Assembly: GCA_004431415.1 (NCBI GenBank)
Contig: QPMI01000608.1
Span: 1-39,375, forward strand
From: Cyanophora paradoxa CCMP329
Lineage: Eukaryota > Plantae > Glaucophyta
DNA: 39,375 nucleotides
Direction: 5' to 3'
How positions within the stretch are numbered: the stretch's first letter is position 1; each line of letters begins with the position of its first letter. Shown piece after piece: positions 751 through 18,855 of the stretch. The notes under the pieces are model-generated. The model was not told the DNA's origin and searched no databases. It worked only from the letters and a program-made list of their open reading frames with translations. The position numbers and the translations under genes are program-made.

Positions 751-1471
751 TTAAGCATGGAGATATTGGAGCATATATCGAAATGTCACAGAGATTGATA
801 GGTTACAATATGTATGCAGCAAACCAAAGAGAAATAGATCAGTAAATTCACATAACTGTTTCAGTGTCTGAGAATGCAAACAAAAAAACAAAAGCATATT
901 TACAAAAGTTATCTGTGACTTGATTGCAAGTATAAAGCCAATTCCTTTGTATATATTTTTAGCTGCCTCAGTGGCATACTGAGACCGCTTTTTCTCAATT
1001 ATCTTATAGACCTGGGGGTCCATTGCTACTATCAGTGGCAAATAATATTTAATCGGTCTCCCTCTGGGTCTCTGCTCCTCTTTTTGGGCTTTTCTGCGAT
1101 AATAGGAACATGCTTGTTGTTCTTATACTCTCTATATTCTGGGTCCTCTCTATATCGTTTCTGCTTTGCTAGAATGTGTCTAATAGCACCCTCAGTTAAA
1201 GGCTCATCACTGGTAAACTCGATTAAACTAATTGTATCCTCCATTAATATTTGCAGAGAAAACGTTTTCACCAGAAAGAACTTCTCCTTGGATACTCCTG
1301 TTGCTCATATGTATACTCTGTGGGGTCTGCTGGCATTGACTCCACAGAAACTGTTGATCTCCTTCTCTCTCTTGCTTCTGAGGCATTATCCTCATTATCT
1401 GACATCTCAAACTCCATTGTTGTCTCACAGCATCCACTGTGGCAATTGCTCACCACATGCAGACTGAACAT
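751..1471 (-). CDS. Hypothetical viral protein(s), probably one gene split by frameshifts
   Basis: Three abutting or overlapping minus-strand ORFs (1268-1471, 1032-1271, 751-1041) with charged, protein-like composition. No recognisable motif, and the ends are uncertain. Confidence 0.4.
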
Positions 1472-1565
1472 CTCAAAACTTTCGTATTATATCCATGTCT
1501 CTAATAAAACAGAGAAAATTAAAGCCAAACTCGTCTTTTATATACTGTTGGGGCTACTCCCTTTT

Positions 1566-2244
1566 CTACTTCAGCTTTGGTGGCACCAGGTTCAATGGTT
1601 CCCTTTGGGTCTTTGTTTTCATTTCATCTACTGCCTGCTCATCGATTTGGTTCTCTTTCTTAGCAATAAACTGTTTATCTGGGACACCAGTGATACCCAT
1701 TTTGAATACTTCCTTTCGAAGCATCTCCTTTAGCTTGGCTCTCTCTTTCTTCTCAGTAACATACTGCTCCAAGGCACTTGATTTGGCTTCCAGATCTTTG
1801 AGTTTAGCAGTCATCTCATCCCATTGAGCTTTGGGAATTCGATGAATATTTTGAGTGGGAGCAGTCTTATATGTGACTTCACCAGCCATAGACTGGATTA
1901 CCTTGTCTGATTCCTTACTAAGACCTTCACCTTTGCGAGCCAGTGAAAGATCTTGCAAGCCTAAACCTTTATCATCAGCAGCACCAATAATTCGCCTGGC
2001 ACCCTCAGCAACAGCTTTCATTTTGAGGCTTCTGGTGAGATGTTGAGTTGGTCAGCAGTTGAAGCTGTGGGGCTTTGTCATCGACTGATTCCTCATAGGC
2101 AGCATTGAGGGGTCTTCTTGTTGTGAGGGCTTTATCATTCATACCATTGAATTTCATTGGTTCAGTGTTAATGGATCCATTGTTTCCACCACCTGAATAG
2201 CCAACAGCCCCAGCTGGGATCCCTATTTTTCGTTTGGGAGGCAT
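1566..2244 (-). CDS. Hypothetical basic/coiled-coil viral protein, frameshifted near 2010-2065
   Basis: ORFs 2005-2244 (starts MPPKRK, NLS-like) and 1566-2021 overlap and join if indels are allowed. TAATAAAG lies just upstream of the ATG. Confidence 0.55.
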
Positions 2245-2272
2245 TGTATCTTTATTAGAATGAGAGATAATT

Positions 2273-3022
2273 TTATAAACCGCGTTTATATCGCATCAAT
2301 TTATTGCTATGGACTTGGCTTTTCACTTCTTTGGGGGCTTCCTCTTTCTCTGGTGGTTTCAGTTCATCTTCTTTCTTTTTTGGCTTCCTGTGGAAGCGAG
2401 GAAAATCGAAATCTCCAACTAAATCGGCTTTATCGACATAGTATTTAACTTAGTAGTTTGCAGAGGACCAAACGATATGATAGGAGTGAACATACTCTTC
2501 AAACATTTGTAGAAATCCTCTTTTTTCGCATTATATTGTATTCTTCCTCTATGGCTTCAAGTTCTTTTGCGATTAGCAGCACAAAACATAATCATAATTC
2601 AGAATTACACTTGAACTTTCGAATTTCTGAGAGATAGATAATGGATATTTTCGAATGGCGCCTCTGGAATACAAGATCCATTTTTATCTCCTGAGATCGA
2701 CTTCATTTCTATCATTAAATCATCTAAAACACCACATATGGTTAAGGTTCACCCTTTTCTCTTTCTCTCTCTTAAATTTGCAATGTAAGGGATCCCATGC
2801 ACCCAGTTGAACTGTAGCAGCTTTGTCCCAAAAATGTGAAAATGAGGTAGCGGATATAATAAGTGTTGTATCAATCTTTTTGGCATCATGCAGCTGTTTC
2901 AAATAATATTTTACAGCTTCAGTCTTCCCACATCCTGATTTCCCAAGTATGAGTAGTCGGAAAGGGGGTTCTATCATTTCACCAGCCACAAATTCCTCCA
3001 GTTCAGAACTTGGTATAGGCAT
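2273..3022 (-). CDS. A32/FtsK-HerA-type genome packaging ATPase, frameshifted
   Basis: Walker A LILGKSGCGKT is in the listed ORF. In other frames downstream are Walker B (VLDDL, about 2735-2720), MDLVFQRRHSKISII (the family's RH motif), SQKF...NYDYVL and a charged tail ending at TAA 2275-2273. Total about 250 codons, adjacent to the capsid gene. Confidence 0.85.
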
Positions 3023-3081
3023 TGTTGTAGATCTTCCTAAATAAAGACAGATAAAAATAATGCTGGGAGACTGAAAATGGT

Positions 3082-4452
3082 CTATAAATTGATTCTACGA
3101 AGACCTGAACCGTCCACAATGAGGAAACTATGCATGAGAGCGCGAACATTAACATCGATTACCTTATCTGAAGGCATGTAGAGGGTGAGGAAGGAAGAAG
3201 AGGAATTTGTTAAATCAACATAACCAGACTGGGCAATATTTCGAATTGCCTTTTCTCCATCAAGGCAGAATGGGAGTCCTGAAAGGACATAGCGATCAGC
3301 AACCTTATCCATGTTAGAGCATTTGAAGGCATCAGCAATTAGCTCAGCACCTTTGAGTAGGGAAATTGGCTCAGTGGCATAAAGTCGCTGTCCATTAATT
3401 TCAACAGTGAAAGTAATATCTTTGGAGTTGGCATAGGTCTTAAGAACACTGTGGGAGCCAGTGGATTTATCAACAGTTGCATTATCACGAACTGAAACAA
3501 GCAGAGCATAAACAAGACCTGAGATTTGAGAGAGGTTAATTCGATTGGGTTGGGCATTGCCCTTGGCAGGGAAAGCACTAGCATCTACAAATCCAATATC
3601 AAGGGAGGGAATAGCCATGCCAGTAGTCTTTACTTTTTCAATAACAGTAGCGAAAAGCTCATCAGAAACATTAATAGCATGCATGTAAAGGCGAGGAGAA
3701 GTAATAGAAATAACAGGAGTTGTTGCACCAAGACTGAAAGTGGTGATGTTTTGACCAACATGGGCAAGTGTAGCATTAGCAGTATCACCAAGACCATCAT
3801 CTTCTGTCTTATCAGCAACTGTCCCACCAACAACAGGGAGAGAGCGACCACCATAGGAAGTTTCAACATAACCCTTCTCAGCATCCTTAAACCAAACAGT
3901 AACAACCATTTCACCAGATAAAGCACCAAGGGGAAGATAATGATTGAGCCAAGGCACAGGGATTTCAACGAAAAATGAGCCACCAAGTCGGTTGGTTCCA
4001 TGAGCAGGGATACCATGAACCATGCCCATTGATCGCTTCTTTTTAGCTAGTTGATCCTCCGAATAATAGACCAGGGGGAAATGAGCAAGGAAATCAGATG
4101 GAATATGGTAGGTGTAAGATCCATAGGTAATTTCAAGTCGCTGAACTAAAGCACCAACTGGGCGAGTGTATCCATTGCGAACTAGGTCAGTATCACCAGC
4201 AAACGTGATGGCTGGAAGGTCGAAAGCAAGTTCGAGTTTTCCACAGAAATTGTAGCGAGGTAGCTTGAAGGAAATGCGATTTCCAACATTATTCTCAAAA
4301 GTATTGCTGGGATTCACAACAACTAGAACTGGCTTAGACTTAGATTCGAGACCAAGCATAAGGGAGTTATCCAGGAAAAAGGCTTTCGCCTCCTCTGGGG
4401 TTGTTAGGGCTTCTTTCAGCGAAAGTCTTTGAAGAGTGGAAGTGATATCCAT
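3082..4452 (-). CDS. Double jelly-roll major capsid protein (456 aa from the likely ATG at 4452)
   Basis: Intact beta-rich ORF between the ATPase and penton genes. Motifs GNRISFKLPR..GKLELAFDLP, ALVQRLEITYG, FFVEIPVPW..YLPLGAL..EMVVTVWFK and VEINGQ parallel NCLDV-type capsid motifs. ATAAAAG precedes the ATG at 4452. Confidence 0.85.
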   Translation of the reverse strand: MDITSTLQRLSLKEALTTPEEAKAFFLDNSLMLGLESKSKPVLVVVNPSNTFENNVGNRISFKLPRYNFCGKLELAFDLPAITFAGDTDLVRNGYTRPVGALVQRLEITYGSYTYHIPSDFLAHFPLVYYSEDQLAKKKRSMGMVHGIPAHGTNRLGGSFFVEIPVPWLNHYLPLGALSGEMVVTVWFKDAEKGYVETSYGGRSLPVVGGTVADKTEDDGLGDTANATLAHVGQNITTFSLGATTPVISITSPRLYMHAINVSDELFATVIEKVKTTGMAIPSLDIGFVDASAFPAKGNAQPNRINLSQISGLVYALLVSVRDNATVDKSTGSHSVLKTYANSKDITFTVEINGQRLYATEPISLLKGAELIADAFKCSNMDKVADRYVLSGLPFCLDGEKAIRNIAQSGYVDLTNSSSSFLTLYMPSDKVIDVNVRALMHSFLIVDGSGLRRINL

Positions 4453-4505
4453 TATATTCTCTTTTATTATACTGCAACATAAAAAATCTACCAATGATCC
4501 TTAAT

Positions 4506-5513
4506 TTATGCGAAGCTTGTAATAACTGGATAGGAAGGGTGAAGCTGCGACATTCTCATCTTAAAGTATTCATAAACTGGGTCCCCAGCTGGCTCATCAC
4601 CATAGCGAATTTCAAAGGTCAGATGAACAGGTTGACCCTCGAAATCAATTGGTTCATTTACAGCATTTACAATATCAACCGAGAAAGTGGATAATCCAAC
4701 CTTTTTATTATAATATTTGTAAAGTGGGTGAGCCTCTGTTGAATTATAAACTACATGCTCTCCATAGTCTTTATCAGGGACCACTATTTTATGGAAGTAA
4801 CCAGTCAGGAGACCATCCCCACATTGCACCAGATCACCCAGCTCCTTTACCCTCACAAACAAAACACTGTCCCTTGTCTTTTCAGGCTCAAAAGAAGATA
4901 TAATGCCATTCACTCGACCACCAGTAAAAATTCCATCAGTGAGAGCATCATAGACCTGTGATTGGATTGGGAGTTACCATATCTTCCAGGATCAAGACCC
5001 AGCAGTCTAGCTGAACTCAACAGCTTTTGGATTGTTTGTTGGCTTGGGTTCACAGCTACTGAGAAAGCCAAGTAAAATGGTACTGCTGAGTGGAATATAA
5101 TTCGTTTCAGTGATTCATCCCATTTGCAGCGAATGGATGGTTGGGGATTCTGCCTTCGAATTTAGAGTTAATTACATTCACCAGTTGCTGGTGGCTTTGG
5201 ATGGGGTGTTTCGACTTATAATGAATTGTTTCCATTGTTCATAGTCAGCAGCTGGGCGAACTGTTGGAATTCCTGAGCTTCCAGCTCCAGGAGTTTGTTC
5301 AGAATAATAAATGCTAAATGCATTGTCAACTGTCACATCTCCTGCTTTGGTTTCACCACTCACCATAGGGATACTGTTATAAAATTCGGCTGAGACCAGT
5401 CTCACAGCCCTCACATTCTCATAACTACTGGGGAGTCTAGCCACAAAGCTTGAAGTGGGACCATCACCAGAGATTGTATTAAATGAGCTAACCTCGATGT
5501 AATCCACAGGCAT
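4506..5513 (-). CDS. Minor capsid (penton-like, single jelly-roll) protein 1, frameshifted
   Basis: N-terminal SSFVARLPSSYENVRAVRLVSAEFYNS, middle SARLLGL (in an unlisted frame, about 5030-5000) and C-terminal LFVRVKEL...FSVDIVNAVNEPIDFEGQPVHLTFEI align by eye with the intact paralogue at 5543-6475. At least three indels are needed. Confidence 0.78.
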
Positions 5514-5542
5514 TCTTCTTTTATCTATATTCATATATTAAA

Positions 5543-6475
5543 ATGAACCGGCTCGTTAATATTGATAGCAGGGATAGAAGCCAAGGACAAAATGAAAACT
5601 CTTACAGGGTCACCCTCACAACTCCAGTAGAGAGACCAAGGGAATGCAGGGTTCTATATGCAGAGATTCCAAACAGCATCTATAACAGTGTGGGAACTGA
5701 TCATCTAACAGTTCAGTTTAATTACCAAGATGGTTCATATAACCAAGTGATCACACAACAAGTGTATCCCCTTCCCAGTGGCTACATCAATCAGGGTCAT
5801 TTTGGGGTAACACACCCTTATAATTATGGGCTGAACTATTCAAGCTTCCAAACCATTGCAGATAAAACTGTGTTTTTTGAGTTCAAGATATTCTACAATC
5901 CAACTACCTATAAAGTGGAGTTTTACAGTAACCATGAGTTTCGTTTTATTGCAAGCAACCAGAGAATAGGAAAGCTTTTGGGTGTAAGTTCTACTGAATA
6001 CACCACTGGGTATTATAGCACTCCTCCTGTTGGTGGATCTCCATATCGACCTGAGAACCTTTTAAAGTATGATGGTAAACCTATTACACCTGATCACCCA
6101 GCATGGGGAATCACCTTCTCAGGACCCAGACTCTCCTCAAAGCCCTTGCAGTATTATTTTGACAGCAGGAAGATGTCTGATATGAATGCTGAGCAGTATC
6201 TGTACATGCATATTAAAGAGCTAGCCCCCTTTGCCAGCAGACACAATATAATTCCGAAATCGCAACCACATAACCAGGGGGCTATCCTTAGATTACAATT
6301 GAGTAAGGATATAGGTGGCTATGTTTACCATAGTGGTGAGCATGCAGAATTCATTCAGATAAATGACAGAAACCTGGTGATAAGGGAACTCACAGTTGAG
6401 TTTAAAGATTACTTTGGTGAACTGATTGATATGAATGGAATCGATAATTCTTTTCAGTTGGAGTTTATCGAATAA
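5543..6475 (+). CDS. Minor capsid (penton-like) protein 2, 310 aa
   Basis: LVNIDSRDR start, VLYAEIPNSIYN, IGKLLG, YLYMHIKEL and ELTVEFKDYFGELIDMNGIDNSFQLEF are typical of minor capsid proteins of PLVs and NCLDVs. Confidence 0.85.
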   Translation: MNRLVNIDSRDRSQGQNENSYRVTLTTPVERPRECRVLYAEIPNSIYNSVGTDHLTVQFNYQDGSYNQVITQQVYPLPSGYINQGHFGVTHPYNYGLNYSSFQTIADKTVFFEFKIFYNPTTYKVEFYSNHEFRFIASNQRIGKLLGVSSTEYTTGYYSTPPVGGSPYRPENLLKYDGKPITPDHPAWGITFSGPRLSSKPLQYYFDSRKMSDMNAEQYLYMHIKELAPFASRHNIIPKSQPHNQGAILRLQLSKDIGGYVYHSGEHAEFIQINDRNLVIRELTVEFKDYFGELIDMNGIDNSFQLEFIE

Positions 6476-8021
6476 AGGCACCTGTAAAGTCAACTCTCAT
6501 TGTGGGAGCATTCACATACACAAGGGGATAAATGCGAATATATTTAATTCTGAGAGAAAAACCTATGTAAAAAGCATCCTTGATGCTGAGAGGAAATCCA
6601 CTCAATAGAGCCACATCACCTGAGTTGTGAGCATTGTTAATGTTCTCACAGACATATATTTTGTTTTGCCCATCTGATCGAATAAAAGACCAGTTGATCC
6701 CATCAGTGGATGTTGCCACATTGAAAGTCTTAATAAAAGCATTGGTGTCCCCTGATCCATAGGCAATCACAGAAGAGAGTTCAAAAGTATATGGGAAAGC
6801 AACTTGAAGGTATTCAGTGGGGGTTTCCCATATCTGCTCAGGAGCATAGGCTCCAGCTTCCCAGCCAAATGCTGAAGGTCTAGCCATGAAAGGCTCTTTA
6901 CCAGTCACAGAGGATGAGGCAGTGAAGGCATCATCTGCAAGCTGATACCAATTAGCATCCAAAGGTGGTGATGTAGTGAGAGTGGATGAAATGTAAGCCT
7001 TTGAAGGGTTCTTTAGTTCATAGTTTGCTACTAGTAGGCTGCAAAGCTTATTGATCATATCATTGTTTGCTGCAATGTAGGTTTCTGTGAAAGAAAGCAT
7101 ATCTGGGATTTTAGAAGTGTCATCAAGGGAGCTAACTATATGGTTTGGAAGAGGGACCGATAGCCTATAGTATCTCCCATAATCCTGATCATAGTTGTAG
7201 GGTAAAAGCTCCTCCATTTTATCAAGGGCAGAAAGCTCACTTGCAGCCATGAGCATGTTAATCAATGGGCTTCCATCTGTTGAGGCAATCCATGAGAGAA
7301 TGCCCCAGCTGTTTACAGTCTCATAAGCATAACCCACATAATCAGACTCTAAATGTGGGTCCACCTCACCACAAGAGATGCTTATTACTATAATGTCATC
7401 ATCATCACTGTAAATCTTCTTTGCATGGCTGTAACCACACACACTGGGATTATTGTTTCCCGAAATGGCACCATCAATGAGACAGACATATACTCCCCTA
7501 TTGAAATCAACAATGCTTACAGGAGAGAAATATGTAGGAGCAGCAGAAGTAGCCCTAGCAGCAATCTTACAAGGCATAAAGTTGTAATTGTTGTCATTTG
7601 TGATAAATATTGGTTTCATATTCTGAGTATCAAAGGATGTGATCACAATGTCCTTAAGGGAATCCTGTATTAGTGATTCACCAGTAACTGAATTGATTGC
7701 AGTCTCCAAGGGTCCCACATCATACTTTGTGTTAAATAGGGCATTTTCAATGATATTTCGAGGATTTGCGAAAATCAAGGGCAGTTGAGTTAGGTAAATA
7801 TTGTGTAAATCGTTTGCTGTCAGTTTAGGTTCACCTGGTTTATCAGGATGCCTGATGTTTAACCCAATAGCAATGATCCCACCAGTGGAAGTTCCACTCA
7901 CAAGATCCACAAGATCGATTATTCTCCTGCCAGTTCGATTTTCGATTTCTTTGAGCAGCCTGGTTATGATAATGCCCCTTGCACCCCCGCCAGAAAGACT
8001 TAAAACGACCTTGAGAGGCAT
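6465..8021 (-). CDS. Patatin-like phospholipase fused to a C-terminal discoidin (F5/8 type C) domain, 518 aa
   Basis: GGGARG oxyanion motif, GTSTG nucleophile elbow, SAAPTYF and DGA catalytic Asp. The C-terminal FTASSS..W..EYLQV..KTFNVATSTDGINW..KYIRIYP..MRVDF fits the discoidin pattern. Confidence 0.92.
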   Translation of the reverse strand: MPLKVVLSLSGGGARGIIITRLLKEIENRTGRRIIDLVDLVSGTSTGGIIAIGLNIRHPDKPGEPKLTANDLHNIYLTQLPLIFANPRNIIENALFNTKYDVGPLETAINSVTGESLIQDSLKDIVITSFDTQNMKPIFITNDNNYNFMPCKIAARATSAAPTYFSPVSIVDFNRGVYVCLIDGAISGNNNPSVCGYSHAKKIYSDDDDIIVISISCGEVDPHLESDYVGYAYETVNSWGILSWIASTDGSPLINMLMAASELSALDKMEELLPYNYDQDYGRYYRLSVPLPNHIVSSLDDTSKIPDMLSFTETYIAANNDMINKLCSLLVANYELKNPSKAYISSTLTTSPPLDANWYQLADDAFTASSSVTGKEPFMARPSAFGWEAGAYAPEQIWETPTEYLQVAFPYTFELSSVIAYGSGDTNAFIKTFNVATSTDGINWSFIRSDGQNKIYVCENINNAHNSGDVALLSGFPLSIKDAFYIGFSLRIKYIRIYPLVYVNAPTMRVDFTGAFIR

Positions 8022-8064
8022 CTTTTACTTATCAGGAATTTTATAAATCCCTATAGTAAAAGCC
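8022..8064. promoter_or_regulatory. Compact bidirectional promoter/initiator with inverted AGTAAAAG motifs
   Basis: CTTTTACT (8022-8029) and AGTAAAAG (8055-8062) are exact reverse complements, each 0-2 nt from a divergent ATG. Related (A/G)TAAAAG motifs precede other viral starts. Confidence 0.6.
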
Positions 8065-11000
8065 ATGAGCTTCAATTACCCACCCAATCTAGAAACCATT
8101 CAAGATGATAATGCAAGCAGCACCAAGCATGTGAACTTTGATAATATTAAAGTAAAGGGTTCAGTTTCAATTGACCACAGCTCTGATAATTCATCAAAGA
8201 CTCAATCAAGGGAGCATGCTTTATCTGTGAATCAAACCGATCCAGATAAAGAGGATGTCAGTGTTGCTTTTAGTTTGGGTAATGTGAAAGCAAACCAAGT
8301 GGCAGAGATCAAAGCCACCAGAAGGAGACCTAGGAAACTGAAAACCAGTGGCACTCACCCAGATATACCTTCCAGGTTCGATAGTGGTCGATTGATTTTC
8401 AATGTTCAAGATGAGCAGGGCAAACAGAACACAGCTTTACGAATTTACAATGAGGGCAGCACTGCAAAAGCTGAGGTCCCCCAAGTATTGCAAGTGGGTC
8501 CCATTGCCAATACAAATCAGGTCTCCTACACAAATGATGTCTACCCCAAGGATATTACATATGACTTTGCAAGAAATGAGCCTTTTGGGTTCTTTACTCC
8601 AAAAGATGTCCATCAAAAAAAGCCATCAATTACAATCAACAGTAGCCCCAGTCAACCAGTAGCAATCCATTTGCATCCTGATTTAGTCGAAATGGATAGG
8701 CACCTTTTGCCTTTGTATAGCAATGTGAAAGACCTTGGAATTCGAACCAGGCAATGGCGAAATATCCATGGCAGTAATGTGTATGCAAATGGTGAGAAGC
8801 TTGTTAGTGAGAAAACCCTAAGAGAAATCATTGAGCATTATGGTCCCAATGGACCTACTGTCCCATTCCCTATTCCATTTCCCAATGGACCACCCGATTT
8901 AACACCAAAGAAGCAGCCTGGAAGAGAATACACAGCAACTGAAGATGTAGCCTTTGGGCAGCATATTGTTAGTTGGGAGCAAGTTCGCAATAAACCTATA
9001 ATTGAACCCAGAAAGCAAATAGATGAGCAGTATTTACCTCCTGAAGTCGATATATTAGAGCTTGATGAATATCAATTCGTTCCAGATGAGGAAGAATATT
9101 TACCAGATGGTTTTGACCCACAAGAATATGAATATGATCAGTTTGACCCCAATGAGGAGGAAATATTGCCCGATGGCTTAGATCCACAAGAGTTTGAGTA
9201 TGAGCAGAACTATGAACCTGATGAGGAGTATTTACCAGATGGTCATGATCCACCAGCTGTTGACTATGAGCAACCTTATGAACCCCATGAGGAATTGTTA
9301 CCAGATGGATTTCGACCTGAGATCTGGGAGTTCTTTCCTGATTATGAACAAATTAATAATAAACCTGCAAAGTATCCCCCAGAGGATCACAATCATGATT
9401 GGGATGAGATCTTAGGCAAACCTCAGAAGTATCCACCAGAGGATCACAGGCATGATTGGGGTGAAATTGATGGGATACCTGCTGAGTTTCCACCAAGCAA
9501 ACATGAACACACTTGGGATGAGATCAATGACCAACCAGAATTCGCAAAGGTGGAGCCTCTTGATAACTTGGGGGTTTCTCTTTACCAGACTTGTAATGTC
9601 CCTGAAAGGATTTTTTTGAACGAACACTATGTTCATGTGAATGGGACACTTGCAAATTCAGCTATGAGAGGACCACTTCATATTAGGACATTACCAGGCT
9701 CTTTTGAAACCCCACCTGAACCAGGAGCAACCATACCAAATATCTTTGTGTCAAGCTACATGGAGGCTGACATTCCCACAGATACATTCAGAGTCCCAAC
9801 AGACCCAGCAACCTACCAAAATTACAACGCTGCTATACAGGTTCATGTAGCAGATGTAAGCAGTTTAGATGGCTCAAGACCAATGATAGTATTCAGCAGA
9901 GATAAATATTCTTACATTCCCATAGTGGGAACTGCAAATGATAATTATGGGAGGGCAGAGCTTGCATGGATTAAAACAGATTATGGTGGGGTTCTGGAAG
10001 CCAATCAGAGGATGGCTGCAAAAAACATACACAATGAAAATATTTCGAGAGTGGTCACAGAGGATTACCTTACTGCTGTTGTTCTTGTGAATATAGTCAC
10101 CCTTGCTATGCTTGCAAATTATGTAACGAAAAATGAACTTGCTCTTGAATTATCAAAGTATCTTCTCAAAACAGGTGGGACAATCACAGGGGACCTTACT
10201 GTTACCAGTAACCTTTACACAAGTAACCTTTATGCAAGCAATATAACGGTCGATTTTCTTACTGTTACATCTAATGCAAACCTCCCACATCATCCAACTT
10301 CAAATGTTGTGGAAGGGTGGATCAGAAACCATACTCACACCAAAGACCAAATTTTAGACTTTGATCACACACATGCCTGGTCAAATATTGTGGACAAACC
10401 ATTGACTTTTCCCCCAGATGATCACACCCATGCCTGGTCAAATATTTTCGACAGGCCCCTAACCTTCCCTCCTGATATTCACACTCATGATTATACCCAG
10501 ATCACCAACTGCAATCACAGACATCCTTGGAATGAAATAGATGAACAACCAGTGTTTGCACAATTAAATGCAATCGGAAATGTTTTTAATGGAGTCACAC
10601 TTTACCAATCGAGTAATACACCTGAAAGATTGTATTTGAATGATCATTATGTTAGTCTCAATGGGACTTTTACAGGTCAAACAGGCACTCCAATGGAGGG
10701 AACTCTTGCAGTAAGATTACCCAGGGATCCAATCGTAAATGGAGTTTATGATGGTGATTTTAATGTAGGAGTAAATGATACTTTCCCCAGTATCTATGTT
10801 ACAAATTATCACCCAGGTGAAACAGGACAAGTAGCCGATTTTTCAGCAGCTATTCAAATAAACGTTACAGATCAAAGCGCATATGATGGAGCAAGACCTA
10901 AAATAGTATTCACAAGGGAGAAAGTTGTAAACTATCTTCCCGTTGCGGGACAACCCACAGATGATCACGGTAAATGTGAGATGGCGTGGATAAAAACAAC

Positions 11001-13530
11001 ATCAGGTGGCGCCTTAGAAGTCAATCAGAGGATGGCGGCGAAAAACTTACACAATACAACCCTTTCAGGTGTCGTTACAGATGATTACCTAACCAATAAA
11101 GGATATCTTACGACCGCGGATTTAAGCAGTTACACAACGGATGCAGAATTAACAACGGCTCTTGCGAATTATTTACCTCTTACAGGTGGGACAGTTAATG
11201 GAACTGTAAACGCTACTAGTCTACAAATTGGTGGAAACACAATTCCAAAAGGATATGATTTCGATCAATTAGATGTAGTATCAACAGATAGAAGCGCAAA
11301 TAATTGGAATTTGAATTGGTCACCAAGAACAGGACAAACAGGATGTTATACTACACCAGCAAATGATGAAGATTGCAGCGGTTGTTGGATGCGTTGGACA
11401 ATTCCAGAAGGTATGAAATCATTTTATATTCAGCATATGCCTTGGTATAATGGCAGATATTTTGATATCTATGGTCAGACTCTCAATAACAATCAGCATT
11501 TCTTAAAACGTGTAAACGATTATCAAGGAATACAGTCAGTAAATCATGATGGGACAAATAATACTATCTTGTTTGTATCAATTAATTGCGAGTTTTACAA
11601 GTATATTTATGTTCAAGGGCGAATAGGTCGCATTCATCTTACAGGGGTTTTCGGTTGGAGCAGACAGAGGGCAACAGATAATGATGTTGGTTTAGTTCAT
11701 TATGATAATATTGCTTTCAAACCAGATGTAGGCAAATATACAGAGTTTGATGTTGTGAGTGGTTACAATAGCGCAGGTGTTGAATTTGTAGGGTCTTGGG
11801 ACACGAATTGGAAACCTACATCAGATAACCCGGTTGCAGGATTTTACAGCATTGTAACTGATGATGAAACCAGCGGTGACTATATGCAGATCTTAGTTCC
11901 AACAGGAATGAAAACTTGTCACGTCCAATATTTCTGTTGGACGAATTGTAGATATTTTGATATAGGAGGTTATCGAAACAATAGATGGAATCACATTATG
12001 AGAGTGAATACTTATCAAAATGCAGGAAATACATATGCAGATTCACTTTGGCATGAAGGTTTAACATGGACTTCATTCTTTTGTGGGAATTTCTCATATA
12101 TTAGATTTGTTGCGAGAAAAGGGCGTTGTCATATTGGAATGCTTGGATGGACAAAAGAGGTAGGAAGAACAGCACCAGCAAATGGTATGATAAGTTGGGA
12201 TAATGTTTATAGCAAACCGTCATTTTATTCAGCCGCAGACCTTCCACAAACAGCGACATGGCCAACAAATACATGGTTAAAATCAACCGACACTGTTCCG
12301 CGAATTTGGTTTGGAAATGGTGATTGCACATATATTCGAGGTTATGGAAATGGTGCTGGTGTTTCAATTGAATTCAGAGACTCAGCAGATGGAGCAATAT
12401 TAAAGTCTTATAACAATGGTAACTTTTGGGTGAAAAACACTATTACAGCACCCACTATTAATGCTACTACCAAACTCCAAATAAATGGTAATGATATCCC
12501 AAAGTTTCACACAGCAGATAAAACAGTAGGAGGTATTGAATTTAATAGATGTTCTTATAACGATTGGGAGTGGGCGTGGAGTTCAGCATGGGATCCATCT
12601 TATAATTATGGTTCTTACGTTTATAATAAGCAATCGGATGATCAAACTTCTACCGCTTGGATTGACTTCGATATTCCAGAAGGATATCACACAGGAACAG
12701 CGTTTTTAACTTATTTACCTTGGGTTAGCTCACGACTTTTTGAAATTTGGGGAGTGAATCGACAAGGAAATGAAGTTTTTATAACATCAGTGAATAGTTA
12801 TCAACCATACTCCACATCTCCTGAAGGTAACCACAGTGGTTTAAATAATGTTCCTATACATCTTGGTAATCGATTCCTCACAATTCGGATTAGACCAAAG
12901 ATTGGAAGAGTTCACATTATGGGTATAAGTTACATGAAAATTTGGGTAGGAAATAGTTATGGTGGTCACACCGGCTATATTCATTGGAATAATGTTTATA
13001 GTAAACCAAATATCTTAACAGGAGCTGTGGAAACTTGGTTTAATTCCAGTGATGGATATAATCGAATTCATTTCGGTAACAATGGTTCTACATATTTGAA
13101 AGGAAGGGGAGATTATCCAATAAGATTTCGAAATGAATTAGATTCTGATATTTGTTGGATCGATCATAACGGGCGGATGTGGATAAACAATTATTTAACA
13201 CAAGGAAGTGACAGAAGATACAAAACAGATATTAAAAAGATAACCGGCGCTCTTTCAGCAATCGAAAAATTAGAAGGAGTGAGTTTTAAACGAATTGGGA
13301 GTGAAAAAGACGGAACAAAATTAGGTTTAATTGCGCAAGATGTAGAAAAGGTAATACCAGAAATTGTAAGTGTCACAAAAGAAGATGGTTACCTTTCTCT
13401 CGAATACACGGGTTTAATTCCAGTTCTCATAGAAGCCGTTAAAGAGTTATCTAAGAAATGCAAAGATTTAACACAAACATGTGAAAATCTCCAAAGTCAA
13501 ATAGATCAAATTAAAAATGTCACAGTATAA
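8065..13530 (+). CDS. Giant fibre / receptor-binding protein with C-terminal intramolecular chaperone (Peptidase_S74), 1821 aa
   Basis: HxHxW..I..KP phage-tail repeats, two YL..TGGT..G.(L/V) shaft motifs and three repeated beta-rich domains. GSDRRYKTDIKKI..AL..IEKLEGVSF..GLIAQDVEKVIPEIV..LEY.GLIPVLIEAVKEL plus a terminal coiled coil. Confidence 0.9.
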   Translation: MSFNYPPNLETIQDDNASSTKHVNFDNIKVKGSVSIDHSSDNSSKTQSREHALSVNQTDPDKEDVSVAFSLGNVKANQVAEIKATRRRPRKLKTSGTHPDIPSRFDSGRLIFNVQDEQGKQNTALRIYNEGSTAKAEVPQVLQVGPIANTNQVSYTNDVYPKDITYDFARNEPFGFFTPKDVHQKKPSITINSSPSQPVAIHLHPDLVEMDRHLLPLYSNVKDLGIRTRQWRNIHGSNVYANGEKLVSEKTLREIIEHYGPNGPTVPFPIPFPNGPPDLTPKKQPGREYTATEDVAFGQHIVSWEQVRNKPIIEPRKQIDEQYLPPEVDILELDEYQFVPDEEEYLPDGFDPQEYEYDQFDPNEEEILPDGLDPQEFEYEQNYEPDEEYLPDGHDPPAVDYEQPYEPHEELLPDGFRPEIWEFFPDYEQINNKPAKYPPEDHNHDWDEILGKPQKYPPEDHRHDWGEIDGIPAEFPPSKHEHTWDEINDQPEFAKVEPLDNLGVSLYQTCNVPERIFLNEHYVHVNGTLANSAMRGPLHIRTLPGSFETPPEPGATIPNIFVSSYMEADIPTDTFRVPTDPATYQNYNAAIQVHVADVSSLDGSRPMIVFSRDKYSYIPIVGTANDNYGRAELAWIKTDYGGVLEANQRMAAKNIHNENISRVVTEDYLTAVVLVNIVTLAMLANYVTKNELALELSKYLLKTGGTITGDLTVTSNLYTSNLYASNITVDFLTVTSNANLPHHPTSNVVEGWIRNHTHTKDQILDFDHTHAWSNIVDKPLTFPPDDHTHAWSNIFDRPLTFPPDIHTHDYTQITNCNHRHPWNEIDEQPVFAQLNAIGNVFNGVTLYQSSNTPERLYLNDHYVSLNGTFTGQTGTPMEGTLAVRLPRDPIVNGVYDGDFNVGVNDTFPSIYVTNYHPGETGQVADFSAAIQINVTDQSAYDGARPKIVFTREKVVNYLPVAGQPTDDHGKCEMAWIKTTSGGALEVNQRMAAKNLHNTTLSGVVTDDYLTNKGYLTTADLSSYTTDAELTTALANYLPLTGGTVNGTVNATSLQIGGNTIPKGYDFDQLDVVSTDRSANNWNLNWSPRTGQTGCYTTPANDEDCSGCWMRWTIPEGMKSFYIQHMPWYNGRYFDIYGQTLNNNQHFLKRVNDYQGIQSVNHDGTNNTILFVSINCEFYKYIYVQGRIGRIHLTGVFGWSRQRATDNDVGLVHYDNIAFKPDVGKYTEFDVVSGYNSAGVEFVGSWDTNWKPTSDNPVAGFYSIVTDDETSGDYMQILVPTGMKTCHVQYFCWTNCRYFDIGGYRNNRWNHIMRVNTYQNAGNTYADSLWHEGLTWTSFFCGNFSYIRFVARKGRCHIGMLGWTKEVGRTAPANGMISWDNVYSKPSFYSAADLPQTATWPTNTWLKSTDTVPRIWFGNGDCTYIRGYGNGAGVSIEFRDSADGAILKSYNNGNFWVKNTITAPTINATTKLQINGNDIPKFHTADKTVGGIEFNRCSYNDWEWAWSSAWDPSYNYGSYVYNKQSDDQTSTAWIDFDIPEGYHTGTAFLTYLPWVSSRLFEIWGVNRQGNEVFITSVNSYQPYSTSPEGNHSGLNNVPIHLGNRFLTIRIRPKIGRVHIMGISYMKIWVGNSYGGHTGYIHWNNVYSKPNILTGAVETWFNSSDGYNRIHFGNNGSTYLKGRGDYPIRFRNELDSDICWIDHNGRMWINNYLTQGSDRRYKTDIKKITGALSAIEKLEGVSFKRIGSEKDGTKLGLIAQDVEKVIPEIVSVTKEDGYLSLEYTGLIPVLIEAVKELSKKCKDLTQTCENLQSQIDQIKNVTV

Positions 13531-13533
13531 TAA

Positions 13534-13842
13534 ATGGCGACCTATCCACTTGGTGGATCTCCTTCTACTACTTCTGAGCCTGTTGCTCTTGCATTCGATA
13601 CTATCAAACTTGTAGCCGCACTACAAAATGTCGAAAAAACGATTCAGCAAACTAACAAGCTCTCACCAGTTGTAAATGAGTATAAAAACCTCTTGGTTAA
13701 TGTCCTTGCTCAAGCTGCATATGGTGACCCTGTTGCTAAATACAATGAGTGTGATAACAACATTAAAGCAATGACATCCAACCTGCAAGTTCTTTCAACT
13801 GTTTACCAATCCCTTGGATCGAATTTAATCACTTTGGCTTGA
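13534..13842 (+). CDS. Hypothetical helical protein, 102 aa
   Basis: Intact ORF starting 3 nt after the fibre stop (TAATAAATG), with amphipathic composition. Confidence 0.7.
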   Translation: MATYPLGGSPSTTSEPVALAFDTIKLVAALQNVEKTIQQTNKLSPVVNEYKNLLVNVLAQAAYGDPVAKYNECDNNIKAMTSNLQVLSTVYQSLGSNLITLA

Positions 13843-13881
13843 TGGTAGTTTATTTTTCTTTCCTTCTTAGTAAAAGAAGCA

Positions 13882-14736
13882 ATGGGTGAATATAATCGAG
13901 TTCAACTGCCTATATATTCCCTTGGATCCCCTGCAATGCATTTTCGCCAGCATGAAGTAAATGATGAGGTTCGTGGTTTAGAATCCACAGAGAGACCCAA
14001 CTCCAATGGCAACTCCTTTGATAAAAATTCGATTATTCGAGTTAAAGAGCTGAGAGCTGATAAGAATTCTGGTGTGGTTAAAACAACTCGACTTCTTGTC
14101 ACAAATGCTAACTTCTTTCAGCCTACTAATGGAGGTCCTGATGCTTACAGTGTTGATCTGAAAGCCCTTGATTATGATAAAAACACTGCTGCTGTAACTG
14201 TGAGATCAGGAGGAGCATTTATTGGTGGTGGCTGCAGAGTTTCAGGTCAGCTATCTTCATCTGTTTCCTACAATGATGTCCCAGATACTCTCGAACAAAA
14301 TGTGGAGAACCCACAACGAATTCGTTTCTACACACCTGTTGCACAGCAACCTTTTTTGCATTTCTATGTTGCATCCTCTGTAACTCTTGAGAATTCGGAA
14401 TTAGTTTCCATTACAGGAACTGATCGAGTAAGAAGAAATATTCCTCTTCCCACTGCAATGCTTTCCATGTGTAGAGCCAATAATAATCAACCAGGACACA
14501 ACTACTTATTCTTTGTTCAAGCTTCGAACCATTTTGGCAGAGGATATTGTGTTTATAACAATTTGACATTTACCTATGATCTGTTTGTCACTGAGGTTGG
14601 AGTATACAATACTATGATTATGGGACTGAGAACAGATATAGCAGCTGTATCAGCACTTCGTGGGGTAAATGTTGCTGATATATTCACAACAGGATTTTAC
14701 CAAGAATTAGATGTAATTGATGACCCAACCCCATAA
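13882..14736 (+). CDS. Putative structural / fibre-like protein, paralogue A (284 aa)
   Basis: Intact ORF preceded by AGTAAAAG. Shares GL.STE, ELR.DKN.G.VKTT.LLVTNANF and SGGA.IG.G.RV.G with the next gene. Confidence 0.75.
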   Translation: MGEYNRVQLPIYSLGSPAMHFRQHEVNDEVRGLESTERPNSNGNSFDKNSIIRVKELRADKNSGVVKTTRLLVTNANFFQPTNGGPDAYSVDLKALDYDKNTAAVTVRSGGAFIGGGCRVSGQLSSSVSYNDVPDTLEQNVENPQRIRFYTPVAQQPFLHFYVASSVTLENSELVSITGTDRVRRNIPLPTAMLSMCRANNNQPGHNYLFFVQASNHFGRGYCVYNNLTFTYDLFVTEVGVYNTMIMGLRTDIAAVSALRGVNVADIFTTGFYQELDVIDDPTP

Positions 14737-14759
14737 AAGATATATCCCTTTAATGTAAA

Positions 14760-15593
14760 ATGGCTGAGCAACCCCCACTTGAACGAATTATTACACCTCA
14801 GCTATCATTAGCTGCACCAGCAAACCATGTTCTGCAGCATGCTACTTTTGATGATGTTGAGGGACTGCAGTCCACAGAGGTCCAACCTACAATGAATACA
14901 TTTGGTTCCACCCACAAGCTGAGATTACAGGAACTCAGATGTGATAAAAATAATGGAATAGTTAAGACAACTAAGCTACTTGTGACAAATGCAAACTTTT
15001 CTGCTCATTATGGAGACCCAGATAGCTATGGAGATCCTCTTTCTACTTATTCTTTTGAATCTAGGTCGGGAGCTATTAACTGCAAATCGGGGGGAGCTTA
15101 TATTGGTGATGGTCTTAGGGTTGGTGGGGCTGTTGGAGCGCCTCTATTTGTGAATGATCAACCCAATCCCATTGATCCCAACACAAGAATTCGAACCTAT
15201 GTCCCCAGCATGAATGCCCCCTATATAATAAAAATATTCCCAATTGTTGTGAATGAACAAACAGCAGTAGTAGACTCTCTTGTTGAGATTGGTGACCACT
15301 ACAAGGTTGTTGTGGATATTCCACCAGATGTATATGCTCTTTGTCAAGTAGAGGGTGGAACTCCTAATTTTGCTGTTGTGATCACCCCATATGATAATTT
15401 TGGAATTGCTTATCATGGAGTCAATTTCGGTTTAGAAGATTACCAGTTCTTAGTGAGAGCCACCAAGTTTGGTATCTACAAGTGTGTATTATATGCTGAG
15501 AGAACCGATTTTATTGCAAGGCAGAATACCTATGCTGAATACTATGGCACAAATCGATATTTCCCCATTTTTGGGCAGGATACTGCTCCATAA
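14760..15593 (+). CDS. Putative structural / fibre-like protein, paralogue B (277 aa)
   Basis: Intact ORF and tandem paralogue of 13882-14736, with a conserved N-terminal half and a diverged C-terminal half. Confidence 0.75.
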   Translation: MAEQPPLERIITPQLSLAAPANHVLQHATFDDVEGLQSTEVQPTMNTFGSTHKLRLQELRCDKNNGIVKTTKLLVTNANFSAHYGDPDSYGDPLSTYSFESRSGAINCKSGGAYIGDGLRVGGAVGAPLFVNDQPNPIDPNTRIRTYVPSMNAPYIIKIFPIVVNEQTAVVDSLVEIGDHYKVVVDIPPDVYALCQVEGGTPNFAVVITPYDNFGIAYHGVNFGLEDYQFLVRATKFGIYKCVLYAERTDFIARQNTYAEYYGTNRYFPIFGQDTAP

Positions 15594-15615
15594 GAATGTT
15601 GATTATATATAGAGT

Positions 15616-15888
15616 ATGGATAGTAAAACAAAAAAGTTTATTGATGCTGCTATGACAGTTCATGGTAAAGATAAATTCGATTACAGTGAGACACATTACA
15701 TCAAAGCTCAAGAGAAAGTATCTGTTAGATGTTTGCAGTGTAACAAGGTGATCCTTACCTATCCCTTTAATCATGTGAAGGGATCAGGTTGTAGGGACTG
15801 TAATAAAAGAAAAAGTCAAGCACATAGGAAAAGGGCTACTTCATCAATTAGAGTAGAGTATAGGGATATTTGCATTAGGTTTGACTAG
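15616..15888 (+). CDS. Small Zn-ribbon protein (DUF723-like), 90 aa
   Basis: FI..A..VHG..FDYS...Y......V.V.C..C......P.NH..G.GC..C pattern, as in repeats associated with viral homing endonucleases. No nuclease domain follows. Confidence 0.7.
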   Translation: MDSKTKKFIDAAMTVHGKDKFDYSETHYIKAQEKVSVRCLQCNKVILTYPFNHVKGSGCRDCNKRKSQAHRKRATSSIRVEYRDICIRFD

Positions 15889-15911
15889 TTAATTTTTCTA
15901 AGGTATTCTTA

Positions 15912-16310
15912 ATGGAGACTAAACACAGAGGCTTTCATGTTATGCTTGATTACAAGGCTAAATCAGCTATAGCAACAGGTTATGAGCATGTGAGCTTCCT
16001 AGGTAATTGGATTATGGGAACCCTTGAACAAGCAATATTGAGACAAGGTATTAGGATTGTTCATAAACACTGTGAGATATTTGATGGCAAACTATCACCT
16101 CCTGGTTTTGCATTGGTTCTGCTATTAGATGAAAGCCATTGTACAGCTCATTGTTATTCCAATGAAGGCATGTTAGCAATTGATATATTCAGTTGTGGTA
16201 AAGAAGCTCAGCATAAAACACAATCAGTAGCAGATGAGATCGATAAAACAATGAATTTCCTCACATTTGAGAAGACTGAGAGACATAAACATGATAGATT
16301 CCCGTTTTGA
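15912..16310 (+). CDS. speD: Prokaryotic-type S-adenosylmethionine decarboxylase proenzyme homologue, 132 aa
   Basis: G.HVMLD at the N-terminus, PPGFALVLLLDESHCTAHCY (E-S-H pyruvoyl self-cleavage site) and AIDIFSCG. Confidence 0.88.
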   Translation: METKHRGFHVMLDYKAKSAIATGYEHVSFLGNWIMGTLEQAILRQGIRIVHKHCEIFDGKLSPPGFALVLLLDESHCTAHCYSNEGMLAIDIFSCGKEAQHKTQSVADEIDKTMNFLTFEKTERHKHDRFPF

Positions 16311-16713
16311 TGGGTTTCTATAATGATAAACAGGGTAATTTACCTTTTTTATTACAATGGCAATCGTTAAAAAAGGATATAATATATCCTTTCCTACAAT
16401 AGCTTTCTACAATGATTTTCTTTCTACAGTAGCTTTTGTTACAATAGAATTCTACTGTATGATGTAGCCAAAATATGAATGCATCCTAAACCTACAAATG
16501 TAAGATTTCGAATACTATTCGATTTCATTACAGTAAAACTCAACATTCCCCTTGATTCCCCCTATTATAATTAAAGTGGACTCAAGGTTGACTCATATTA
16601 ATCGTAAAAGTAGTAAAAGTATATGGATTTTGTTACGAATTCAATGGGAGGGTTGACTAAGTGGGTTGAGTTGACTCAAATTTCACAGGAAATAACAATG
16701 AATCAGAGTATAA

Positions 16714-17182
16714 ATGCATTTTTTGAATCAACTACACCAACTAACACTGAGATTTTACCAATATATGAGGTCCTTACTGAATATGGTTTGTGTGACAGGT
16801 GTGACAGGTCTATCCCAAACTTTTCTATAGCATAAAAATGAACTCTCAAAAGTTTGGGATGGACCTGTCACACCTGTCACACTCGATTATTTCATTTGTT
16901 TATTCAAGTAGAATTACATAGATAAACTTCTTACTTATTGTTACTGAGTTTTTCATTATAAAAGAGATCCTTACTAAATATGGTTTGTGTGACAGGTGTG
17001 ACAGGATGCATTTTGTGAATCAACTACACCAACTAACACTGAGATTTTAACAATATATGAGGTCCTTACTGAATATGGTATGTGTGACAGGTGTGACAGG
17101 TCTATCCCAAACTTTTCTATAACATAAAAATGAACTATCAAAAGTTTGGGATAGACCTGTCACACCTGTCACACCCAATTAT
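16714..17182. repeat. Two ~170-bp direct repeats (period 292 bp), each ending in a 35-bp iteron palindrome, plus a half unit
   Basis: 16714-16882 matches 17006-17174. Stems are 16790-16824/16848-16882 (1 mismatch) and 17082-17116/17140-17174 (perfect), with 23-nt loops. A half unit lies at 16968-17005. Confidence 0.95.
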
Positions 17183-17425
17183 TTCAAAAATCCTAAGGGT
17201 CCCCCCTTAGAATCATTAAAACATGATAAAAACATATAAGTTTCATGTATAATTACGATTGGATTCAATAAGAGATCGATTTGTTTTATTTAACAAATGA
17301 ATCATTTATGGATCTTAATCGAGTTTAGCGATATATTTCCGATTAAATGAATTAAATTTAATTAAATTTAATCGAGAAAGTACATGAATATAATATCGAT
17401 TAAATCAATTAACAAACAGACCAAT

Positions 17426-17710
17426 CACACATAGTAAAATGCGGAGTTTTAACCAGAGGCAAGATCTAATTGAGATTCAGTTATATTATTCGGAAATATA
17501 TACAGATTATCGATAGACTCAGTAAGACTAATCGGAAAATAAGAGAAATTTACGATAAAATATCGAAAAGAATACAAAATAAACGAAATAAATGAATATT
17601 CGATAAGATATACACAGATTAACGATTGATTGAAATAGAATATACGAGATATATCAACAAAATCAATTAAGATAAGCCGAGGGTTAAAACTCCGCATTTT
17701 ACTATGTGTG
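17426..17710. repeat. Perfect 29-bp inverted repeat marking the element terminus
   Basis: CACACATAGTAAAATGCGGAGTTTTAACC (17426-17454) and its exact reverse complement (17682-17710), with a 227-bp AT-rich spacer. Host-like DNA begins at 17711. Confidence 0.95.
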
Positions 17711-18210
17711 TAGGATGCGCATCAAATTAAATTTGATCGCGAGCAGCGCTGCGAGTGAACGTTCAATCGGGGGCGCACATGTAGAAGCGAATGACCGCGT
17801 GATGGCCGCGAGCAGCGATATCGCCCAAAACTTTCTCGACGGGACCCCAGGCAAAGGAGTTCGGGCCAATGAAGACATCTGAGAGCGCGACATAGCTGAA
17901 CTCCAATGCCTGCGCAGCGGTCGCCGTTGGGCGAGAATTACGATCGAGGCTCTTCGGAAGCAAATTTAAAACGCACCCAGTCAGTCCCGGCAGCGTTCAA
18001 CTGCGGGTAGAAGGAAGTCCAGCCTGCAAAAAAGTTTTGATTTCGAATTTCACGTGCAGCGGCGATGGGAGCGCGGCTGCAATGCGACGCGAACGCACCT
18101 TTGAGCGGATTCGGGCCGCTGACGGGCTTGTATGTGAGGGGACCGCCAAAACAGGCGGCCGCGGCCGTGAAGAAGATCACAGCCGTGAGGAGGGAGCCGG
18201 AGCGGGCCAT
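17711..18210 (-). CDS. 5' exons of a host secreted DUF4832 / glycoside-hydrolase-like gene, interrupted by the viral insertion
   Basis: Splicing two GT-AG introns gives signal peptide MARSGSLLTAVIFFTAAAACFG, then NPLKG|WTSFYPQLNAAGTDW|ALEFSYVALSDVFIGPNSFAWGPVEKVLGDIAARGHHAVIRFY. This resembles the N-terminus of bacterial DUF4832 proteins. A third intron opens near 17778 and runs into the viral terminus. Confidence 0.68.
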
Positions 18211-18855
18211 TTCGAGAAAAGCTTCTTAGAAACTTGGAGAATTTCAAGATTCTCAGGGCGCGCAGTGCTGGCGCCGGAGACTTGCAATTGGCGGGAAATG
18301 GCTCGCCTTCGAGGCGACTGCGGGCGATTCGCGCATTAGAAACGCTGCGAATACACTTTTCCAGGCGCCACTGAAGCCCCCGGAGCGCCACGCGGGCGCC
18401 CGGCGAGCGCACCTTGCCGGCCTCGGAACGATTTGAAAGTGAGGACTGCGCGGGCCGTGGCGGGAGTCAGGCAGCAGGGGGGGAGGACCTGGAGGGGAGA
18501 GGAGACCAAAAGTAAAGCGCCCGACCCGGCCCGCGACCCCGCAGGGGGGGAGGGGAGAAACGCCAAGGGAAGAAATAGGCGGCATTTGCATGCATGCAAG
18601 GGGAGATATAGGGCTCGAGGAAATCAGATGAATTCAAGACTCGCGAGGGGATTCGAAGGATACGAATTAAGTGCTCCGAGTATAGACAAGCCAAGATCCG
18701 ATGATCCAGCTTTACTGGGGAATGAAGAAGAGATCGAAGGGCCCGCTGAGAATTAGCTATAGACAAGCCAAGATCCAGCTTGAAGAGGAGCTCGAGTAAA
18801 TCAGCGATCGCCCCGGCTCGCAAGAACCGAATTCAAGCACACGAGAGCTAGCGGG

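Follow-up and report, generated by a model that had tools for sequence, protein, structure and literature searches.

The window analysed here, a stretch of DNA of 39,375 nt in its full length, contains one long open reading frame (ORF) which had been described from its sequence as a modular phage-like tail fibre in a eukaryotic virus. The locus raises the question of what kind of virus carries such a protein, how the fibre is built and matured, and what it may bind. The answer bears on how Polinton-like viruses (PLVs) recognise their hosts.

Table 1. Positions of the features in the window, with strand and basis of the assignment.
Feature	Positions	Strand	Basis
A32-like packaging ATPase, broken in the present copy	2720..3022	-	Pox_A32 E 0.0011, under cut-off
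Likely double jelly-roll major capsid protein, 456 aa	3082..4452	-	Atlas 0.97-0.98 to Capsid_NCLDV/Capsid_N clusters; relative P0001, 61% identity
Likely minor capsid (penton) protein	5543..6475	+	DUF5901 E 0.0036, under cut-off
Patatin phospholipase-F5/8 discoidin fusion, head to head with the fibre gene	6465..8021	-	Pfam
Fibre ORF, 1821 aa, intact	8065..13530	+	Open reading frame
N-terminal region, no family	8065..8964	+	No Pfam match; one PHROG at E 0.066
Acidic 22-aa repeats, 5 units, 35% D+E	9007..9339	+	Repeat search
HxH shaft repeats, set 1, three HxH, 19-aa period	9340..9534	+	PHROG 988/5231/23676
Module M1	9502..10209	+	Self-comparison; no relative known beyond this gene
HxH shaft repeats, set 2, five HxH	10318..10554	+	PDB 9d93_La; 6cl5/6ct8/6cl6; Pfam PTR E 0.059, under cut-off
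Module M2, 48% identical to M1	10516..11220	+	Self-comparison
D1, unnamed domain, predicted galactose-binding-like jelly roll (fold inferred from D3)	11260..11724	+	Alignment
D2, core on a contig at host-flank depth	11737..12219	+	Alignment; contigs
Linker L1, residues 1403-1461	12271..12447	+	Self-comparison
D3, modelled as an all-beta jelly roll	12493..13014	+	AlphaFold2 pLDDT 83, pTM 0.82
Linker L2, residues 1657-1712; predicted end of the mature fibre	13033..13200	+	Self-comparison
Peptidase_S74 intramolecular chaperone, Ser1715/Lys1720	13207..13527	+	Pfam 57.9 bits vs curated cut-off 22; 6f45 E 1.7e-5
AdoMet decarboxylase	15912..16310	+	E 5.2e-11
Right end of the element, with inverted arms 17426-17473/17663-17710 followed by host DNA	17426..17710	.	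Repeat search; junction contig 17694-18172 at flank depth

The viral element and its genomic setting

The window consists of two parts with a GC content of about 35–42% up to ~17.7 kb and 64–84% beyond ~18 kb. The low-GC part is made of compact ORFs for the capsid protein, the ATPase, a DUF5901-like protein, the patatin-F5/8 protein, the fibre, two paralogues of unknown function and an AdoMet decarboxylase; it is likely an integrated, multi-copy PLV inserted in GC-rich eukaryotic DNA, with its left end beyond the window and its right end within. In run X1, one of four runs examined, single contigs of the element had depths of 776–8533 vs 99–127 for the flank, and overlapping contigs at flank depth (99–127) covered positions 17694–19137. 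Since the element contigs are far deeper than the flank and contigs cross the right end, the element is integrated and has many related copies; the GC step and the contig depths thus characterize it as endogenous. The four runs (X1–X4) carry the same species label and are perhaps not independent of each other. Fourteen of the 24 runs listed, all with one organism label, contain 60–64% of the words of 8065–18000.

The inverted arms at the element end are 189 nt apart and could form a terminal hairpin. Palindromic GTGTGACAG-type units, origin- or iteron-like in appearance, occur at 532–635, 16786–16883, 16983–17005 and 17078–17175; the first lies in the interior of the element, and the rest are found close to its right end, in a duplication of 181 nt. 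In the host flank, two of the 67 frames matched Pfam, and neither provided a marker of the lineage. A search for tRNA genes found none. The host DNA also holds a long nested inverted repeat (25629–28268 and 29031–31672, arms 72–99% complementary), with a subtilase exon (29448–30038) in one arm, which represents either an inverted gene duplication or an assembly fold-back.

The capsid protein has 212–217 features in common with the Capsid_NCLDV/Capsid_N clusters of the Atlas, and its recognition value was 1778, below 2300; the support for its assignment as the double jelly-roll major capsid protein of a PLV is therefore moderate. It had no match in Pfam or among PDB sequences and no relative in IMG/VR, and P0001 was its one relative among 8000 candidates scored. 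According to Table S6 of PMC12220804, the MCP-POL column is matched by only two of 156 glaucophyte elements. The sequence thus appears to represent a divergent capsid lineage. The family DUF5901, matched by the gene at 5543, is presumably linked to minor capsid proteins.

In the same table, lipases (89), AdoMetDC (66) and S74 (37) are counted among the 156 glaucophyte elements, the combination of many lipases with AdoMetDC and S74 occurs only in the glaucophyte row of the 19 host groups, and patatin-discoidin fusions are named for Rhizaria and glaucophytes in the passages of PMC12220804. Judged by its genes, the element matches the published glaucophyte PLVs, which points to a probable host of glaucophyte type.

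Several genes are broken in the present copy, namely a gene piece at 1–400, the ATPase (2300–3022) and a second penton-like gene (4506–5534), while the 5.5-kb frame of the fibre is intact. The broken ATPase and penton-like neighbours may mean that the present copy is a relic, or else they may reflect errors of the assembly. Downstream of the fibre, adjacent paralogues at 13882–14736 and 14760–15593 share 34% identity, with the N-terminal half more alike; they matched no family and are possibly short virion proteins with variable C-termini.

Organization and predicted maturation of the fibre

The ORF and the layout read from it in the original prediction were confirmed. The N-terminal region is likely the capsid-anchoring end, judging from its position, and the acidic repeats that follow are likely a flexible spacer; they were indeed found as five units with a 22-aa period (LPDG/LPP at residues 324, 346, 368, 390 and 412), and their DNA copies lie 66 nt apart at 9087–9272. 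Both of the predicted sets of HxHxW..I..KP repeats are present, with HxH at residues 442, 461 and 480 (a period of 19 aa or 57 nt) and at 756, 768, 787, 806 and 818. The module of ~230 aa, noticed earlier as occurring twice, is repeated at residues 480–715 and 818–1052 with 48% identity and a score of 486 (shuffle mean 37, maximum 91). The three beta-rich domains of ~165 aa, D1 (1066–1220), D2 (1225–1385) and D3 (1477–1650), have pairwise identities of 38.5, 29.0 and 35.9% and scores of 214, 184 and 156 (shuffle maximum 52–67); the motif described for them is found in all three, with VP in place of IP in D2. The two linkers recognised earlier proved to be related as well (41% identity, score 109, shuffle maximum 45). 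A motif W/Y..[IV]..[KRQI]P, with 12 matches in the protein including one inside M2, stands at the end of the HxH repeats and of each of the three D domains; D thus has the look of an insertion into a shaft that continues beyond it.

The fibre matched 37 PHROG families, the best of which are tail fibres; for PHROG 988/5231/23676, E values were 1.5e-13 to 6.6e-12 for the whole protein, with the best stretch at residues 429–496. The C-terminal Peptidase_S74 domain (residues 1715–1768) is well above its curated Pfam cut-off. Together with the capsid gene, these matches bear out the prediction of a phage-like S74 fibre in a eukaryotic virus, with the refinement that the virus is an integrated, multi-copy provirus. 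In passages of PMC4690869, pb1 of phage T5 is cut before Ser1264 with Lys1269 as the base, and the spacing of Ser1715 and Lys1720 is the same, which gives the present protein the dyad of S74 fibres. The match of the dyads leads to a predicted cut between Gly1714 and Ser1715. A Ser-Asp cleavage site had been placed at 13207; the S74 domain does start with Ser1715 at this nucleotide, but the cut is predicted before the serine and not within Ser-Asp.

The HxH repeats align with the tail collar fibre 9d93_La (E 2.9e-5) and with the pyocin fibres 6cl5/6ct8/6cl6 (E 0.012–0.13), so that HxH here forms part of a periodic repeat akin to the shafts of fibres with solved structures. According to passages of PMC6116203, the HxH motifs of the pyocin fibre trimer contribute six histidines that bind iron. 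By analogy with these systems, the protein is very probably a trimeric, S74-matured fibre, both the trimer and the cleavage being predicted. Among proteins of 1001–3187 aa, none was related to the fibre over its full length, and none of 3551 candidates was a full-length relative of residues 1050–1700.

Outside this gene, no relatives of module M were found, the matches being confined to the HxH repeats (P0159, L001), and M and the N-terminal region are unrelated (hhalign probability 1%). A monomer model of M from two sequences was uninformative (pLDDT 33). By sequence comparison, we regard M as an orphan module.

The D domain: family, fold and origin

A profile of the three D copies was searched against 1.84 billion proteins, with clustering at 50% identity, and retrieved 191 clusters at E up to 0.001 (152 at 1e-10); none of 150 matched the profile in the shuffled control. 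Among the 150 clusters listed of the 191, 143 have one D copy per protein, six have two and P0002 has eleven; 34 of the listed proteins carry S74 and 29 carry collagen-like runs. Pfam scans of 35 D proteins revealed collagen, S74, phage fibre repeats, F5/8, LamG, PAN and similar domains, none of them over D. The domains that co-occur with D are fibre or adhesion domains, and its neighbours in other proteins include ricin-type lectin, LamG, F5/8 and PAN. The protein P0002 has a length of 5217 aa and a hydrophobic N-terminus resembling a signal peptide; it may be a cellular surface protein.

In Pfam, each of the three copies matched no family at E up to 1 (the profiles of CBM6/35/32, F5_F8, Laminin_G_3 and MAM among them), and D had no match in PHROGs or NCBIfam. 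The three-copy profile found nothing under E 0.2 among PDB sequences, two queries found no D in 50,697 cultured-phage records, and for one D clade (A7), none of 29 pattern hits in GTDB genomes held up. The best Atlas value for D2 was 0.76, which is a lead only. NECAP1, retrieved with a wide profile (E 0.004 over 39 positions), was ruled out as a relative, the folds being different.

The AlphaFold2 model of D3, built from 74 sequences, is all beta (pLDDT 83.4, pTM 0.82). Its structural matches reach Z 11.4 with an rmsd of 2.0 A over 107 residues (VIA-align), 69 of 48,161 chains reach Z 8, and the Foldseek match has E 5e-5 and TM 0.54. The best folds by Z are the C-terminal sandwich of 3nqh (11.4), neuropilin MAM (10.8), Eph (10.0–10.5), cleaved adhesin (9.9–10.2) and CBM35 (9.6–9.9). 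On the basis of this model, we assign D with high confidence to the galactose-binding-like jelly-roll superfamily, which has a beta-sandwich fold. Toward CBM35/CBM32/CBM6 on the one side and MAM/Eph/cleaved adhesin on the other, Z values lie within about 1 and identities at 5–19%; because carbohydrate-binding and protein-binding folds are tied, the fold does not give the class of the ligand. The conserved residues of D (W1553, N1577, Q1580, H1590, R1615 and H1617) are found within or beside the loops that follow odd-numbered strands and, going by the strand order, would sit at one end of the domain. In CBM6/32/35, the sugar site is located at such an end. Weighing the model and these residues, we lean toward a glycan as the ligand of D. 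The earlier suggestion of an unnamed, lectin-like family is upheld both by the absence of matches in the profile collections named above and by the fold, and the fold search that had been proposed matched no catalytic domain.

The alignment of relatives near D3 fetched eight viral loci, four of them labelled GVMAG, and 32 metagenome loci. Six of these loci were scanned, four having clear giant-virus genes and two weaker ones; the clear ones include a D5 primase, a capping enzyme (twice) and two NCLDV capsids beside a D+S74 gene. In that last case, a giant-virus contig (L030, 7934–14286), the D+S74 gene adjoins a tandem pair of NCLDV capsid genes and another gene with S74. A more distant D clade yielded 21 loci, and among five that were partly scanned, one had phage tail-fibre neighbours, two had other PHROG matches and two had none. 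In a tree of 206 domains, D1–D3 fall in an 89-member clade (support 0.89) with five of the six domains in giant-virus context and none of the 17 phage-like ones, a grouping that is partly circular, as the loci were fetched with near relatives. The D family is common to PLV and giant-virus fibres and probably to phage fibres too. The best outside matches of D1, D2 and D3 have 45, 41 and 43% identity vs 29–38% between the sisters, and the array is therefore old or was assembled from separate sources; "triplicated," in the sense of a recent local event, is not supported. A recent triplication in place is not supported by the trees either, where D1+D2 had a support of 0.89 in one and 0.016 in another, with D3 apart.

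Variation among proviral copies

Contig joints were called at a minimum likeness of 90 in four runs. Ten joints are listed inside the fibre gene; five keep the frame and five are out of frame as listed, four of these with unknown letters between. The joint 9471->9375 adds two HxH units in frame (X1, depth 702), a 39-nt (13-codon) insert at 11129, at the end of M2, keeps the frame in three of the four runs, and the joint 11088->10330 leads in frame from M2 back to the second HxH array (X4). Two further joints remove modules, each in one of the four runs, with unknown letters at the junction and short sides of 42 and 36 letters: 11687->12183 removes exactly D2, in frame and at homologous positions (X3, depth 597), and 12216->13192 joins the end of a D domain to S74 in frame (X1, depth 102), although in the latter a D3 end may have been placed on the end of D2, to which it is 92% similar.

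An identical contig with the D2 core (11589–11958) was found at flank depth in X1, X2, X3 and X4 (135, 45, 129 and 79), and this D2 is therefore private to one or a few copies. The summed contig depth along the fibre gene in X1, relative to the first bin, was 1.0, 1.0, 0.5, 0.5, 0.3, 0.1, 0.17 and 0.23, alike in all four runs, and serves as a hint only: summed depths give no ranking of the parts of a gene, and the bin of the ATPase is low as well. Overall, related copies probably gain or lose modules at module boundaries, the contig-graph data being suggestive rather than proof.

Proposed mechanism and alternative explanations

The reading that we consider probable is a chaperone-matured, metal-pinned, trimeric vertex fibre with nine jelly-roll knobs for host glycans, whose modules are exchanged among copies. 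As in T5 pb1 and the pyocin fibres, three chains would fold from the C-terminal chaperone, which would then cut itself off, and as in the pyocin fibres each HxH ring would bind one metal ion, probably iron, with six histidines. The N-terminus would dock on a capsid vertex, reach would come from the acidic and HxH repeats together with the M modules, and the nine D knobs of the trimer would give avidity for host surface glycans, while the patatin-discoidin protein might help entry. The contig joints suggest that proviral copies would gain or lose whole modules by recombination at W..[IV]..KP, the end of every HxH repeat and D domain. Tentatively, the proviral copies might even be a stored library of receptor-binding fibres, in which the half nearer the capsid is constant and the distal half resembles a cassette, with D-family lectin modules recombined at the motif shared along the shaft. 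In eukaryotes, this would parallel the shuffling of tail fibres in phages, and it might follow the surface glycans that a helper giant virus also uses.

The same trimeric fibre could instead use D to bind protein, either a host surface protein or the particle of a helper giant virus for co-entry, as MAM and Eph domains bind theirs. MAM and Eph tie with the CBMs atop the fold lists, and the D relatives nearest to this gene sit in giant-virus contigs, which keeps this reading in view as a less likely alternative. However, conservation of surface-type W, N, Q, H and R, as in D, suits sugar binding. In other proteins, D is also accompanied by ricin-type lectin, LamG, F5/8 and PAN domains, and passages of PMC12220804 argue that fibre-bearing PLVs enter hosts on their own. 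It is improbable that D has no ligand and is a knob serving only the structure or folding of the shaft, the receptor being bound by M, the L2 tip or the patatin-discoidin protein: D is internal and never terminal here, and most relatives have more fibre sequence after it (D-to-S74 gaps of 68–1155 aa), but it is self-contained, its model folds well as a monomer, P0002 carries eleven copies, and polar and aromatic loop residues are conserved.

Broken neighbouring genes and the half of the joints that are out of frame as listed might point to a protein that is no part of a virion, in a decaying transposon-like relic with joints due to neutral slippage or de Bruijn graph artefacts. We consider this very improbable, given that the 5.5-kb frame is still open, that capsid and entry genes are adjacent, and that the analogous PgVV fibre is a virion protein in the passages of 10.1101/2022.07.28.501842. 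The title of the top fold match 3nqh, a glycosyl hydrolase, would suit D as an enzyme (depolymerase), yet the match covers only chain residues 332–460, the C-terminal beta-sandwich of a 439-residue chain, the other enzyme matches are likewise accessory sandwich domains judging by chain range, and no enzyme profile matches D; hardly any weight is left for an enzymatic role. The glycan-binding, module-exchanging fibre thus remains our preferred reading. If the exchange of modules is true, a single host genome would provide a natural series of fibres in which modules could be related to the choice of receptor.

Comparison with known systems

An S74 fibre in a PLV is less novel than the original prediction implied, as such fibres have been published as widespread. 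In the passages of PMC12220804, S74 is ubiquitous across PLVs of most eukaryotic groups, where it ends modular proteins that reach 3.9 k residues and carry as many as seven LamG domains in an array. These fibres resemble the present one in their length, C-terminal S74, arrays of binding-type domains, phage-tail repeats and patatin-discoidin neighbour; their arrays consist of LamG, collagen, BppL_N, avian fibre and H-lectin domains, whereas here a family without profile and the orphan M are found. Copy-to-copy change of modules, suggested here, is absent from those passages; Fig. S6 of the same paper may show the present architecture. Open-access word searches found no literature naming the D family (an unnamed domain is not findable in this way) or module exchange between PLV copies. 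Passages of other work describe a fibre and a discoidin gene in Tetraselmis PLVs (10.1101/2025.10.09.676808) and giant-virus islands enriched in adhesion genes (PMC13620141).

The Ltf fibre of Gezel-14T/PgVV, found in virions (10.1101/2022.07.28.501842, in part), is likewise the longest PLV ORF, phage-fibre-like and next to a lipase, but is set apart by its description as built of T4 gp36-like repeats. T5 pb1 and the K1F endosialidase (passages of PMC4690869) share the S74 chaperone and the Ser-x4-Lys dyad; they have a bullet-shaped tip, whereas the present fibre belongs to a eukaryotic virus and has internal jelly-roll knobs. The R-pyocin fibres and 9d93 (passages of PMC6116203) share the W..I..KP..FPP..HxH shaft repeat and tandem knobs with a lectin-like domain; unlike them, the present fibre has eight HxH in two arrays and a galactose-binding-like sandwich as its knob. 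Finally, D resembles CBM35/CBM6/CBM32, MAM, Eph and cleaved adhesin in its jelly-roll fold (Z about 9–11, TM about 0.5), but differs from them by its low identity, the lack of a profile match and the lack of a single best family. It represents an unnamed, widespread binding-type domain of about 160 aa that is predicted to fold alone. In conclusion, the class of the fibre is already known, and what is new is the unnamed jelly-roll family, the orphan module M and the hints of module exchange.
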